The notes: generated from the sequence alone by a model not told the origin. 64,000 bases of DNA from Dictyostelium discoideum (GCA_000004695.1 CM000152.2:4960001-5024000); one strand, 5' to 3'; counted from the stretch's first letter, positions 26,454 through 30,976 are shown. Translations and numbers: made by a program.

Positions 26454-27350
26454 TAATTTAATTAATTCTTAAAAAAAAAAAAAAAAAAAAAAAAAACATA
26501 TGAAATAATAATAAATAAATAATAAATATATAAAATAAAATAAAATAAAATAAAAATAAAAATGGATGTAATAAGAAAAAAAAAAAAAAAAAAAAATATT
26601 TAATTACTTTTTTTAATTAGATCGGTCATTATGATAAAAAAAACAGTAAAAATTTTTTAAATTTATAGGATATTTGTAGTTTAAATATTGGGGTAAATTG
26701 TGATCAAAAATTAGATACAAAATATCAAAAAAAATCTTCTTTTGTGATATAACAAAATGAAGGACAAGAAATAAAGAAGAAACAATATTTCCATTTTCCA
26801 AAAAAAAAAAAGAAAAAATAATCAATAATAATAATAATAATAAAACTGTAATTAATATGACAATACTTGTAAAACTTTTAAAAAAATAATAGGGTTAATC
26901 TTTAATAAATCTATTAATTTTTTGTCCCAATATCAAAGATTTTATCAAAAATAATTATTAAGATTGTTGGTGATTAAAAAAAAAAAGCAAACAAACCTTT
27001 TATGTATAAAAAGTAATTATAAACCCCATGATTCTAGAGGGTAATTAAAAATAGTGTAAACTCTTTAAAAAAAATAAGAAGAATTTGGCTATTTATTACT
27101 GTAAATAGATTTTGTCAAAAATTAAAATCATTTTAGAAATTTTAAAAGATTAAAAAAAACCAATCACCATTCTCCAGATTTGGGGAAAATATAATATTTA
27201 CACTGTAGATCAATTTAAGATTATTATTAAATTAAATTGTGTTGTTAAGTATATTTTATCACCAATATATACATGTATGTGTCACTCTCTTTATTTTTCA
27301 ATCTAACATACACACACTTAAAAATAATAATAAAATATTAATTATGTACA

Positions 27351-27400
27351 TTCACCACACACAAAGACACTCAAAATCTATCCACACACACACGGTTATA
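27351..27400. promoter_or_regulatory. CA-repeat tracts (cacacac and related). These are candidate C-rich/CAE-like elements of the type bound by G-box binding factor in Dictyostelium developmental promoters.
   Basis: caccacacacaaagacactcaaaatctatccacacacacacgg lies here. Similar tracts lie at 27955-27990 (gcacatacacacacacacac) and 35455-35480 (acacacacacacactcaggcacactc), upstream of the La gene. Functional assignment is inference. Confidence 0.25.
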
Positions 27401-28847
27401 AGTTATAAAGATTAAAAAAATTTTATATCTACATAATAATTGAATTATATTATAATTTTTATTGTTAATTACTTTTTGTTATTTTTTATTAATATCATTA
27501 ACAAACAACACTTTAAAAAAACTTTAATTATCTTTTGTTGATGCCGTTGTTGTTTTTATTTTTTCAATGTGGTGAGTGGGGGTTTTTTAATGTAGTAAAA
27601 TTAATTTTTTTATTAACTGGTGGTAATTATAGTAGTAGTGTAATATGATAACATAGTTTCGATAGATTAAAAAAAAATAATATAATTTTTTATAAATAGT
27701 TTATAATAAAAAAAATAAAATAACACACAACAACAACCACAACAACAACAACAAAAACAACAAAACAATAACAAAAACAACAATATCAAAACAATAATAA
27801 TAATATTATTATTAAAATAATTTTAAAATAACAATATACCCAATAATTATATTAATAATAACAACAAAACAAAACAATAACAACTACAATATTAATAACA
27901 ACTAAAATGAATGTATAATTATGATAATAATAAAAAATAAAAGAGATTCATTATCAAACACCCCCGCACATACACACACACACACTACAATAAAATAATA
28001 AAACCAACACACAAAGTGATAAAATTGATGAAAATAAATGTGGTTACTTGTGTGAGAATAAAAAAAATATTTTTAGTGAGCTTGTGGGCGTTGGTTTACA
28101 ATGTGTTTACTTAATATTATTATTATTATTATTATTTGGAGCTAAAATTTCCTTTTCTTTTTTATTATTATTATTATTATTTATTTTTTTTGAGAAGAAC
28201 AATTTTGAAAATCTAACAAATTAAATTGAACTTTAAAATTAAACATATTAAAATATCATTCTCGATTTTATTTTTTTTTTAATTTTTTTTTTTTTTTAAA
28301 TATTCATTATTTTATTTATTTTTTTTATTTTTTGTTGTTTTAAATTATTAATTTTAAAAATAAATAAATAAGAAACAATAGGTTTATTAATACTTAATTA
28401 TTTATCTTCAATTAGTAGTAACTAGTAACACACTCAAATAAACACATTCATCAATAAAATAATTACGCAAATATAATTATTTTAATCTGGAAAAAAAATA
28501 AAAAAAAATAATAGAAATTCCTGATGTGTGAGTACCTTTAATTATTTACATTTAAAAAATGTAAATAATTAATAAAAGATTAAAACAATTAAATTGGTTT
28601 TTTTATTTTTATTTTTTTTTTTTTTTTTAATATTTATTATTTTTAAAATATTTTTTTTTTTTTTTTTTTTTCCATCATTATAATTATAAATCATTAAATA
28701 TATTTGTGCCTTTAAAAAAAAAATTGATCAATTTTAATAGATAAATTTAACTATTTCTTTTGATGAAATTACAAAAATAATAATAATTTAAAAAAAATTA
28801 AATAACATTGTTGATTGGTATATTCGAATTTATAATATTTTTGAAAA

Positions 28848-28878
<31 letters not shown>

Positions 28879-29067
28879 TTATTTTCTTGATTTTTAAAAA
28901 AAATAAAATTAAGAAATTATAATTTCTATAAATTTTTTTTAATTTTTTATTTAATAATTTATAAAGAATATATCTTTTTTATAGTTTCTATAATTTTTTT
29001 TAAATTTTTTAATTTTTTTTTATATAATAATTTATAAAGAGTATATCTTTTTTTTTTTTTAAGTCTG

Positions 29068-29099
<32 letters not shown>

Positions 29100-29457
29100 A
29101 AATTTTTTAATTCCAAAATTAGGCCAAAGGGAATATTTAGTTAAAGTTTAATTCAATTGTTTGTATTCAAAAAAAATGTTTTTATTCATTTTTCACAATT
29201 TTTTTATTTATTTTTAATATTATTATAATTATCATTAAAAATATTTTTATAATTGTTGTGTAATTTTTTATTTATAAAATATAACAAATAATATAAATAT
29301 TTTCTAACAAATAAAATAAAAAACGTTTTTAAAGTAACACAACTTTTTGTTTGTTATATTTAAAATGTGTGCAAATACATAAAAACAAATTTTGTATGAT
29401 ATTATTAAATTCAAAGAAAATCCCGTTGGCTTTTCTCTCTTTTTCATTTCATTTTTT

Positions 29458-29496
<39 letters not shown>

Positions 29497-29625
29497 GCAT
29501 CAATATATATTGTTTTCAAAATCAACCAACTTTTTTTTTAAAAAAAAGAGAACTATTGATTCACCTTTTCATTTTCTGACAAAGAGTCATCATTCCAATC
29601 AAACATTTTTTTTATTAGATATCTA

Positions 29626-29662
<37 letters not shown>

Positions 29663-30078
29663 TATTTGTTTTTTTAACCACACAATTTTGAAAATAATTT
29701 ATTCTTTCCACCACATCATCTTAACACTATACTTAATAATAACCCATTAAATAAATTTCATTATCAATAAATTTCTTCAGTTGGCCTTTTTTTATTATTT
29801 ATTTTTTAAATTAAAAAAAAAATAATAAAAATAATAATAATAATAATAATAATAATTAAAATTAGAAAATAAAAATAAAAATAAAAAAATATTACATTAC
29901 TTCTAAATATATACTTTTTCAAGAGTATGTCAGTTAAGATGTATGTATATGATAGGTATGGTTATGTATAATTTTTTTATTGATGGAACCAATCAAAAAA
30001 AACTAATAATATAATTTGCTCCCTTTATATTTTAAAGAGAGATCATTACCTTTTGAAAAAAGTAAGAGTTTTAAAATT

Positions 30079-30111
<33 letters not shown>

Positions 30112-30421
30112 GGAAAATAAAATTAATAAAAATAATAAAAATAGTTTTAAAAACGAATGAATTTTATATAAATAACTCTTAATTATTTTTTTATTAAAAA
30201 AAAAAAAAAAAAAAGTAAAAATTTAATTTAGAAACCATTTTTTTTTTATTTTTTATTTTTTTTTTGTTTTAAAAAACATACATACATTTTGTGATATTTT
30301 TGCAACAAAAATTAATTTTAAATTTTAAATTCTCAAAAATTTCAATAAAATTATTTGGGTTCCTAAATTTAAATAATTAAACAAAAAATTTTTTATTAAA
30401 CTTGCATCTCATATTGGTTTT

Positions 30422-30521
30422 NNNNNNNNNNNNNNNNNNNNNNNNNNNNNNNNNNNNNNNNNNNNNNNNNNNNNNNNNNNNNNNNNNNNNNNNNNNNNNN
30501 NNNNNNNNNNNNNNNNNNNNN
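30422..30521. other. Assembly gap (100 N).
   Basis: Run of n characters. The ORF-track entry 30402..30650 spans it and is meaningless. Confidence 1.
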
Positions 30522-30728
30522 TTTTTCAAAAAAAAAAAAAAATACTATCTCACTTACAGATTTAAAAAAAAAAAAAATTATTTTGTTTTTTTATTTTTTT
30601 CTTTTTTTCTTTTTTTATTTTTTTATTTTTATTTTTGTTTTTTATTTTGATTTTTTATTTTTTTTTTTTTTTTATTTTTTATTTAAATTAATTAATTTTC
30701 AACATAAAAAAAATATCCCCTCCTCAAA

Positions 30729-30766
<38 letters not shown>

Positions 30767-30786
30767 ATAAAAAAAAAATTAAAGTT

Positions 30787-30830
30787 CTCGAGCGCTAAAA
30801 AAAAAAAAACCACTTATCGATAGTGTTAAC
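30787..30830. promoter_or_regulatory. Cluster of four 6-bp restriction-site palindromes within 44 bp: CTCGAG, AGCGCT, ATCGAT, GTTAAC.
   Basis: ttCTCGAGCGCTaaaaaaaaaaaaaccacttATCGATagtGTTAACaatt. It lies 150 bp upstream of the GATA factor ATG and about 270 bp downstream of the assembly gap. The nature of the element is unknown (regulatory palindromes, or a linker or assembly artefact). Confidence 0.3.
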
Positions 30831-30914
30831 AATTATATAAATATTTTTTTAATAATAAATAAAAATAAAAAATAAAAATAAAATAAAATAAAAAAAAACA
30901 AAACCTAATAAAAT

Positions 30915-30953
<39 letters not shown>

Positions 30954-30976
30954 CTCGATGTGTTGGTACTCAAAGA

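Follow-up and report, generated by a model that had tools for sequence, protein, structure and literature searches.

A long gene-free block upstream of the GATA factor gene gtaJ in Dictyostelium discoideum is probably a modular developmental promoter

Results

Our analysis of a 64-kb window of D. discoideum DNA suggests that the A+T-rich block preceding the GATA gene gtaJ (DDB_G0281829) is probably the 5′ control region of this gene, i.e., a long RNA polymerase II promoter built of modules, as in developmentally regulated genes of Dictyostelium. That the GATA factor has a long complex promoter was one of the explanations offered by a first-pass annotation of this DNA, and it gains support from the comparison of six genomes: the spacer is colinear and without a called gene in 6/6 of them, 68% of its columns are invariant, and conserved islands alternate with filler. 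The identity of the downstream gene relies on its GATA finger (Pfam PF00320, E = 3e-14) and on the published gtaJ primers, of which 7/7 map to 30977..33121.

Between the stop codon of the LigT-like gene (26452) and the gtaJ ATG (30977) lie 4524 bp, 100 N included, and in L001, an assembly without the gap, the same spacer measures 4785 bp. Its G+C content is 15.1% (84.9% A+T) against 23.9% for the whole window, with 17–25% in the 5′ half, which bears out the earlier description of a gene-free block of ~4.4 kb and ~85% A+T. The block is indeed exceptional in length, ~4 times the next largest spacer of the window, but the range of 0.3–1 kb given for the other spacers was too narrow, since these measure 81–1204 bp (n = 18, from gene calls); the mean spacer of the Dictyostelium genome is ~700 bp as cited in PMC5295588. 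The statement that no ORF exceeds 70 codons was not strictly correct, as two longer mechanical ORFs are present; their frames are not retained in the other genomes. Note that a look-up of a 940-aa ORF elsewhere in the window (11939-14761) gave no record. The locus and the two ORFs are laid out as follows:

26453..30976, no strand: gene-free spacer from the LigT-like gene to gtaJ, with no gene called in six genomes
29304-29525, minus strand: mechanical ORF of 73 aa, a poly-F/poly-K translation of T/A runs
29351-29626, plus strand: mechanical ORF of 91 aa, likewise a poly-F/poly-K translation of T/A runs
30977..33121, plus strand: gtaJ coding sequence, 714 aa, GATA finger at residues 631-664

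The genomes compared were this window (AX4) and L001-L005, all of the D. discoideum group; they are close (89–99% identity) and represent Group 4 by the discoideum complex only, and this closeness limits the power of footprinting. Spacer length was kept at 4.5–4.8 kb in 5/6 genomes, the L002 boundary being uncertain. The invariant fraction of the block compares with 47–74% in the neighbouring spacers (weighted 57%), and the block is conserved at least equally to them, save for one 80-bp spacer. Indeed, invariant G/C-containing islands lie between A/T runs of varying length, and many invariant G/C-containing runs of 20–48 nt were found. From the distal end towards the gene, the following features were recorded:

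27310..28013, no strand: eight half-sites of the GBF type (KGKGKGK / MCMCMCM) forming a distal cluster that takes in both CA tracts
27567..27585, plus strand: G-box-like element CAATGTGGTGAGTGGGGGT, nearly invariant in six genomes, holding the half-site TGGGGGT
27640..27664, plus strand: invariant 25-nt island GTAATATGATAACATAGTTTCGATA with two GATA cores (six-genome alignment)
27716..27905, plus strand: (AAC)n-like low-complexity tract, non-coding (TRF in the gapless copy; alignment)
28453..29202, no strand: poorly conserved filler, ~10–12% G+C, invariant fraction 0.16–0.55, with long A/T homopolymers
~28903-29038: 73-bp tandem duplication in the filler (TRF period 73, 1.9 copies)
29505..29765, no strand: invariant islands of 16–35 nt between length-variable A/T runs, e.g., ATATATTGTTTTCAAAATCAACCAAC, ATTCACCTTTTCATTTTCTGACAAA, ATCATTCCAATCAAACA and TTTCCACCACATCATCTTAACAC
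29891..30075, plus strand: near-invariant island of ~185 nt, the most conserved part, including a 48-nt invariant run

The CA-dinucleotide tracts noted earlier at 27351-27400 and 27955-27990 are both present, and their candidacy as CAE/G-box-type elements is supported by the distribution of GBF half-sites. Using the half-site consensus KGKGKGK, i.e., (T/G)G(T/G)G(T/G)G(T/G) (PMC2257962), 9 merged elements were counted in the block when 0.96 were expected (0/500 shuffles), and 27240-28110, the window's richest kilobase, holds 8 for 1.45 expected (0/500 shuffles). Closely spaced half-sites are found in the pair 27355/27382 and also at 27958/27972/28007. The cluster, which lies ~3.0–3.7 kb from the ATG in window numbering and 3.2–3.9 kb in gapless L001, recurs at homologous positions in L001-L005 (0/300 shuffles each for L001 and L003-L005, 3/300 for L002), so that its position is kept in the six genomes. 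Upstream of the T. lacteum orthologue, KGKGKGK is likewise enriched (4 vs 0.72 expected, 0/300 shuffles), while the excess is weaker in A. subglobosum (10/300) and marginal in C. fasciculata (23/300). Among genomes, conserved flanks surround (CA)n cores of differing length. Preferential conservation of the GBF half-sites over control words was not significant: the exact CA-run and half-site sequences are invariant in 7% of cases vs 27% for composition-matched control words. The CA tracts could be plain microsatellites fitting the loose GBF consensus by accident, and the distal module around the cluster could in principle serve the upstream gene or another transcript.

GATA cores were also in excess in the block (34 vs 22 expected, 4/500 shuffles), but neither the count of WGATAR (14 vs 10.8 expected) nor the invariance of GATA sites (44% vs 29% for controls, p = 0.27) was significant. 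As a constrained inverted GATA pair, TTATCGATAG was rejected, its GATAG half being lost in L002 (GACAG) and L005 (GAAAG) and its TTATCGA half alone being invariant. The CAA/AAC-rich non-coding tract reported at ~27720-27900 was recovered by TRF and by alignment (~27716-27905); it carries stops in 6/6 frames and between-strain indels of 1, 2, 3, 6, 15 and 20 nt.

Beyond the discoideum group, the spacer upstream of the gene is also long, namely 1.0 kb (982 bp) in T. lacteum, 3.8 kb in C. fasciculata and 3.0 kb in A. subglobosum, each being the longest or near-longest of its own locus. Note that the T. lacteum orthologue is syntenic, that orthology in C. fasciculata and A. subglobosum is based on best-hit status only, and that a 2019 orthology table lists the D. 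purpureum orthologue of gtaJ (DPU_G0074600) as the only one. In an alignment-free comparison, the 9-mers shared with the T. lacteum and C. fasciculata upstream regions remained at chance level, and those shared with A. subglobosum were only ~1.6-fold above control DNA, with no convincing common motif.

Closer to the gene, the block contains the assembly gap, a cluster of palindromes and the elements adjoining the ATG:

30422..30521, no strand: assembly gap of 100 N, the sole N run, standing for ~404 bp (L001 9156-9559)
30787..30830, no strand: four palindromic hexamers in 44 bp (CTCGAG 30787, AGCGCT 30791, ATCGAT 30816, GTTAAC 30825)
30801..30820, plus strand: invariant proximal motif A9-CCACTTATCGA, with CCACTTATCGA at 30810-30820, ~160 bp upstream of the ATG, and with the GATA core CGATAAG on the minus strand
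30827..30843, plus strand: invariant TAACAATTATATAAATA, a candidate TATA box judged by its sequence
30917..30951, plus strand: oligo(dT) run of 18–34 nt depending on the genome, directly upstream of the conserved leader
30955..30976, plus strand: invariant 22 nt abutting the ATG, probably a short 5′ leader, within a 57-nt invariant run (30955-31011)

The four palindromes within 44 bp had been correctly located, and the site is the only one of the window with at least four G/C-containing palindromic hexamers in such a length. Their description as improbable by chance holds inside the block (P = 0.004) but not window-wide: when the 64 kb were shuffled in 1-kb pieces and clusters of at least four were counted, 65% of the shuffles contained one. 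The segment is present in 6/6 assemblies with natural variants (CTCGGG, CTTGAG and CTCTGG for CTCGAG; GGCGCT for AGCGCT; ATCGAC and ATCGAA for ATCGAT; GATAAC for GTTAAC), and a plasmid search with it gave only chance AT-rich matches (E >= 0.02). The suggested cloning or assembly artefact is thus dismissed, since six assemblies carry the segment. Compared with a cloning-vector polylinker (XhoI, Eco47III/AfeI, ClaI, HpaI), the likeness is limited to four different 6-bp palindromes in 44 bp; here, unlike in a polylinker, A13 and native sequence lie between the sites, and the six independent assemblies carry the segment with natural substitutions. The alternative of a regulatory dyad element fails as well because the symmetry is not preserved, each hexamer being broken in at least one genome. 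Given this loss and the frequency of such clusters in the shuffles, we read the palindrome cluster as a chance co-occurrence in the proximal promoter.

The 100-N gap lies where the first-pass annotation had placed it, but the collapsed repeat or degraded transposon proposed there is contradicted by the five gapless genomes, all of which (5/5) show ~400 bp of unique, conserved, AT-rich DNA with islands between T runs of 20–40 nt. No tRNA was found near the gap, and no repeat family was shared between the block and the rest of the window, apart from low-complexity repeats. The gap probably results from a sequencing failure at the long T runs.

Searches of the block for a hidden gene were negative. 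No stretch stays open in one consistent frame across the genomes, and 24–29% of the indels of the block are multiples of three vs 7/7 in the gtaJ coding sequence. No tRNA was found in the block, no Rfam family reached the gathering score in the window or E <= 5 in the block, and the RNA structure of the 185-nt island was not significant on either strand (z = -0.87 and -1.34). No strict DUSE, the element found ~60 nt upstream of small RNAs (Class I RNAs and snRNAs), was present in the block; a near-DUSE at 28080-28088 (minus strand) was rejected as not conserved, its CCC occurring in AX4 and L001 only. Of the DUSE consensus applied, only the TGTG box and the ‘three C residues’ were confirmed in the literature (PMC7919456). 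For long non-coding RNAs, the catalogue of Rosengarten et al. was consulted for transcript models of 200 nt or longer in the interval separating gtaJ from its neighbour: DDB_G0281829 is absent from its 28 supplementary files, the complete neighbour table S6 included, and gtaJ neighbours 0/621 catalogued lncRNAs.

Discussion

gtaJ is among the selected transcription factors ‘normally expressed’ in post-aggregative development (PMC12714135), and its expression is specific to prestalk and stalk cells (PMC6873476 Table 2). Its knock-out skips slug migration, and work from 2025 showed that gtaJ controls whether slug migration takes place or fruiting follows at once (PMC12714135). Post-aggregation induction, one property looked for in a GBF-dependent promoter, is thus known for gtaJ from the literature.

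Within a long modular promoter, the layout read from the ATG would comprise a short conserved leader, the oligo(dT) run, the TATA-like box and then the proximal motif CCACTTATCGA; further upstream would come the dense conserved islands (29500-30170 and inside the gap), followed by the poorly conserved A/T spacer and, farthest, by a distal module (26700-28450) with the cluster of GBF-type G-box / CA-rich half-sites as its core. After aggregation, the cAMP-activated G-box binding factor would bind the paired KGKGKGK half-sites and switch gtaJ on, and the remaining conserved islands would bind cell-type factors that limit expression to prestalk and stalk cells. Which islands would act, and on which gene, we infer. 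In this scheme, neither the clustered palindromes nor the (AAC)n tract would be functional in themselves.

The strongest competing explanation, which we nevertheless consider unlikely, is that the 185-nt island (29891-30075) would be an untranslated, uORF-bearing first exon, or an alternative distal gtaJ promoter, with the donor-like GTAAGAG at 30065 spliced over a ~1.2-kb intron, gap included, to the AG before the ATG. Indeed, the island reaches roughly the conservation level of the coding flanks, without large indels, a TATA-like AAATATATAC and a short T run lie just 5′ of it, and it contains TGATAGG, a cluster of ATG codons with a mini-ORF of 14 codons, and the donor-like GTAAGAG, the latter being invariant; in addition, upstream of the gtaJ ATG a long T run leads into an AG. 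A ~1.2-kb intron would be unusually long for Dictyostelium, which counts against this exon, as does the classical and invariant arrangement of TATA, oligo(dT) and short leader adjoining the ATG. Also against it, the exon was called by 0/5 independent annotations, although these report coding sequence only. In its favour, a long 5′ UTR would not be expected in the lncRNA catalogue, since transcript models tiling into a neighbouring gene were dropped from it (PMC5295588). A more ambitious scheme, to which we give little credence, would combine a second promoter in the islands 0.9–1.5 kb upstream (29500-30170 and the gap), with a uORF-bearing exon and a ~1.2-kb 5′-UTR intron, and a long-range enhancer in the GBF cluster at >3 kb. 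If true, the gtaJ control region would be among the most elaborate described in this compact genome and would provide a handle on how the decision to migrate as a slug or to fruit is wired.

It is quite improbable that the block holds an independent non-coding RNA gene (lncRNA or small RNA). The G+C content of the 5′ half resembles that of Dictyostelium lncRNAs (17%, vs 13% for silent intergenic DNA; PMC5295588), and conserved islands are present, but the unannotated ncRNA suggested by the first-pass annotation finds no support from an Rfam match, a tRNA, a strict conserved DUSE, a significant fold or a catalogued lncRNA beside gtaJ, and length-variable homopolymers interrupt the conservation, unlike in an RNA gene.

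Similarly, there is little chance that the block would be mostly neutral filler (A/T, CA microsatellites and homopolymers) with a promoter restricted to the proximal few hundred bp. The low invariance (16–55%) and the tandem duplication of 28453-29202, the free drift of homopolymer and CA-run lengths, and the mere 982 bp upstream of the T. lacteum orthologue fit such a reading. In contrast, all the 250-bp bins outside 28453-29202 are 63–82% invariant, at or above the level of the nearby short promoter-dense spacers, the invariant G/C-containing runs and the maintained spacer length speak against neutrality, and the best hits of C. fasciculata and A. subglobosum also have long upstream spacers.

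With the long modular promoter as our preferred reading, the present work provides coordinates of candidate control modules, islands and a GBF-type cluster that are usable for the design of reporter deletions, supplies ~404 bp absent from the AX4 reference (gap fill as seen in L001), and removes two false leads, namely contamination with vector sequence and a transposon behind the gap.

Among known systems, the promoters of cotC/SP60 and pst-cathepsin are GBF-dependent and post-aggregative, with G-box / CA-rich elements. As in such GBF-dependent promoters (e.g., those of the sigN genes, PMC2257962), the gtaJ block has clustered paired half-sites on either strand, a motif frequency far above shuffles, and a gene expressed post-aggregation in prestalk cells; it differs in that its cluster lies 3.2–3.9 kb from the ATG and not within the first ~1 kb, and in that its matches, putative GBF sites, come largely from (CA)n runs of drifting length. 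Alternative promoters exist in srfA, another developmental regulator, as cited in PMC2257962. Unlike the other long multi-module developmental promoters, the gtaJ control region owes its proposed modularity to conservation alone; it resembles them in extending over several kb, against a mean spacer of ~700 bp, with separable conserved modules. Such long multi-module promoters are those of ecmA/ecmB and pdsA in Dictyostelium, and the gtaJ block is ordinary in kind, not a new kind of element.

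A long, conserved spacer upstream of gtaJ

[quoted passage not shown] It measures 4524 bp from the stop codon of the LigT-like gene (26452) to the gtaJ ATG, with a G+C content of 15.1% compared to 23.9% in the window. According to the gene calls of a second assembly, which cover ~55 kb of the window, this block (4785 bp there) is 4 times larger than the next largest spacer, since the 18 others span 81-1204 bp; the genome-wide Dictyostelium mean is ~700 bp (PMC5295588). Note that the most extreme composition of the window lies elsewhere, at 46210-46523, where stop-free stretches of 2.5-3% G+C fall within a ~1.2-kb spacer of 10.8% G+C.

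The downstream gene is a 714-aa ORF (30977-33121, +) with a GATA finger at residues 631-664 (Pfam, E = 3e-14), and the knock-out and diagnostic gtaJ primers of Table S1 in PMC12714135 map to this ORF and its 3′ flank (7/7). The neighbouring intron-free gene (33575-34081, -) encodes exactly DDB_G0281831 of strain AX4, and gtaJ is DDB_G0281829 (PMC6873476 supplement). It is expressed post-aggregation (PMC12714135) and classed as prestalk- and stalk-specific (PMC6873476), and its knock-out forms fruiting bodies directly, omitting slug migration (PMC12714135).

Conservation was followed in another D. discoideum assembly (L001), where a gapless contig of 6.4 Mb encodes the same protein and is 98.8% identical over the block, and in four genomes, L002-L005, that bear the label D. 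discoideum or D. cf. discoideum, were reached via neighbouring-protein variants and are 89-93% identical, gaps excluded in both cases. All five share a colinear locus, with no gene called in the spacer, whose length is 4.7-4.8 kb, except in L002, where it is apparently ~3.9 kb between gene models, with a boundary made uncertain by an atypical LigT-like model. LigT-like models disagree between assemblies (189, 229, 147 and 146 aa, including L002 17177-18823, L004 18004-18543 and L005 17832-18368), which is probably an annotation inconsistency rather than a biological difference. The gtaJ product itself has 714, 714, 744, 721, 777 and 740 aa in the six genomes, indicating that polyQ/polyN tracts lengthen and shorten from strain to strain.

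Invariant columns over the six genomes make up 68% of the block, compared to 78-94% of the neighbouring genes and 47-74% of seven ordinary nearby spacers (length-weighted 57%). Invariant, G/C-containing islands of 15-50 nt alternate with A/T homopolymers that vary freely in length, a pattern expected of cis-regulatory modules in AT-rich DNA, and unlike an RNA gene or an exon.

Conservation features of the block
26950-27200: conserved stretch, 82% invariant
27567-27585: G-rich element CAATGTGGTGAGTGGGGGT, well conserved
28453-29202: poorly conserved stretch, 16-55% invariant, with a 73-bp tandem duplication inside
29505-29765: series of invariant islands
29891-30075: near-invariant island of ~185 nt, with a 48-nt invariant run
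30125-30168: invariant run of 44 nt

Absence of a hidden gene, and the assembly gap

The first-pass annotation correctly placed its CA tracts, (AAC)n-like tract, one 100-N run (30422-30521) and cluster of four palindromic hexamers (30787-30830), and several of its explanations for them could be discarded. We found no protein-coding gene in the block: open stretches change frame between genomes, and indels in multiples of three represent 24-29%, compared to 7/7 in the first 324 bp of gtaJ. The earlier statement that no ORF exceeds 70 codons is not literally correct: there are two mechanical ORFs, of 73 and 91 codons, which are T/A-run translations whose frame is not kept in other genomes. In the (AAC)n tract every frame is interrupted by stops, and indels measure 1, 2, 15 and 20 nt. 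An unannotated non-coding RNA found no better footing: the block contains no tRNA, no Rfam match at E <= 5 (and the window none at gathering score) and no strict DUSE, the upstream element of small ncRNA genes; the lone near-match is not conserved. A TGTG box has been described for the DUSE (PMC7919456). In addition, each of the 621 intergenic lncRNAs in a published catalogue is given with both neighbour genes, and the gtaJ identifier was not found in the 28 supplementary files of that catalogue, while the best-conserved island folds no better than shuffles (z = -0.87, -1.34).

The assembly gap is ordinary. Its edges align to L001 (window 30421 to 9155, window 30522 to 9560), so the 100 N stand in for ~404 bp. 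This fill is unique, AT-rich and common to all five gapless genomes, with conserved islands flanked by 20-40-nt T runs, at which the original assembly likely broke. A collapsed repeat or degraded transposon is refuted: the fill showed no tandem array or transposon-like ORF, no tRNA lies nearby, and apart from low complexity nothing in it resembles other parts of the window. Just left of the gap (30402-30421), the window reads …CATCTCATATTGGTTTT and the gapless assembly, with slight differences, …CATCTCATTATTGTTTTTTTT, probably owing to low-quality read ends.

The palindrome cluster

A cloning or assembly artefact is likewise rejected for the four hexamers: the cluster is identical in L001 and the segment also occurs in L002-L005, and is thus genuine genomic DNA, and among 72,556 plasmid records only chance AT-rich matches turned up (best E = 0.02). 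A dyad element fails because every hexamer is broken in at least one genome: CTCGAG becomes CTCGGG, CTTGAG or CTCTGG in three, AGCGCT becomes GGCGCT in two, ATCGAT becomes ATCGAC or ATCGAA in two, and GTTAAC becomes GATAAC in one. The invariant parts (GCGCT, A9-CCACTTATCGA and TAACAATTATATAAATA) are non-palindromic. The supposed improbability by chance stands within the block, where 0.4% of shuffles hold at least four such hexamers in 44 bp, but not across the scanned 64-kb window, where such a cluster arises somewhere in 65% of shuffles (1-kb pieces). We conclude that it is a chance co-occurrence within a conserved proximal promoter.

Several invariant islands of the block bear GATA cores. 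However, WGATAR is not enriched there (14 vs 10.8 expected), nor is it significantly more conserved than matched words (44% vs 29%, p = 0.27), and gtaJ autoregulation is possible but unsupported. As an inverted GATA pair, TTATCGATAG in the palindrome cluster is weakened, the TTATCGA half alone being invariant.

The distal GBF-type cluster

For GBF, the response element reads (T/G)G(T/G)G(T/G)G(T/G) (PMC2257962). Counting both strands, the block contains 9 merged matches compared to 0.96 in dinucleotide-preserving shuffles (0/500), 8 of which fall within 27310-28013, the window's richest kilobase, so that the CA tracts proposed as candidate CAE/G-box-type elements belong to a significant cluster. 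All other genomes of the D. discoideum group carry this cluster too, at 3.2-3.95 kb upstream of the ATG, and it is reached by 0/300 shuffles in four of them and 3/300 in L002. In T. lacteum, whose orthologue was identified by synteny (LigT-like, GATA, UQ_con, La, BOP1), the 982-bp upstream region contains 4 matches vs 0.72 expected (0/300). Enrichment is weaker in the empty regions upstream of the best hits in A. subglobosum (3.0 kb, 10/300) and C. fasciculata (3.8 kb, 23/300). Like microsatellites, the (CA)n cores vary in length, hence exact sites are seldom invariant (7% vs 27% of matched control words), and conservation is good in their flanks ACACTCAAAATCTATCCA and ATTATCAAACACCCCCGCAC. 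On these data the tracts may be either a cluster of flexible binding sites or CA microsatellites that persist and fit a loose consensus, and the two cannot be told apart.

Some observations accompany these results. The window's second-richest kilobase for GBF-type half-sites (25001-26000, 4 elements) lies in the divergent spacer between PGM and the LigT-like gene and in the 5′ end of the latter. The T. lacteum locus (L006 8317-16754) has the same order, LigT-like, GATA, UQ_con, La/RRM ... BOP1, as Group 4, and the 168-aa AAA_18 gene adjoining gtaJ is missing there. The A. subglobosum GATA gene is preceded (L008 7029-10000) by ~4 copies of words like ATCATTCCAATC, an invariant island in D. discoideum (window 29589-29605); overall 9-mer sharing is just ~1.6-fold over control intergenic DNA.

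A putative gtaJ control region

Among the explanations first proposed, the long complex promoter agrees best with a conserved, modular, gene-free block bearing a GBF-type cluster, and we infer that this block serves as promoter and enhancer region of gtaJ. Its last ~150 bp would hold the core promoter, in which a TATA-like box is accompanied by 18-34 nt of oligo(dT) and an invariant leader of 22 nt; through the distal cluster, GBF could contribute to the post-aggregative switch, and the remaining islands may confer prestalk and stalk specificity. As the main alternative, the island at 29891-30075, with its TATA-like box, ATG cluster and invariant GTAAGAG, would be an upstream untranslated exon or a second promoter. 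This island, the most conserved of the block, also includes an ATG-rich segment (29929-29973) with a 14-codon mini-ORF (MSVKMYVYDRYGYV), invariant in 5/6 genomes with one substitution in L005.

Read as the gtaJ control region, the block offers a practical map for promoter dissection and a closed reference gap, and no new biological principle. Long multi-module developmental promoters are familiar from Dictyostelium, as are G-box / CA-rich elements, and the gtaJ block would be an undissected example at a gene of current interest.
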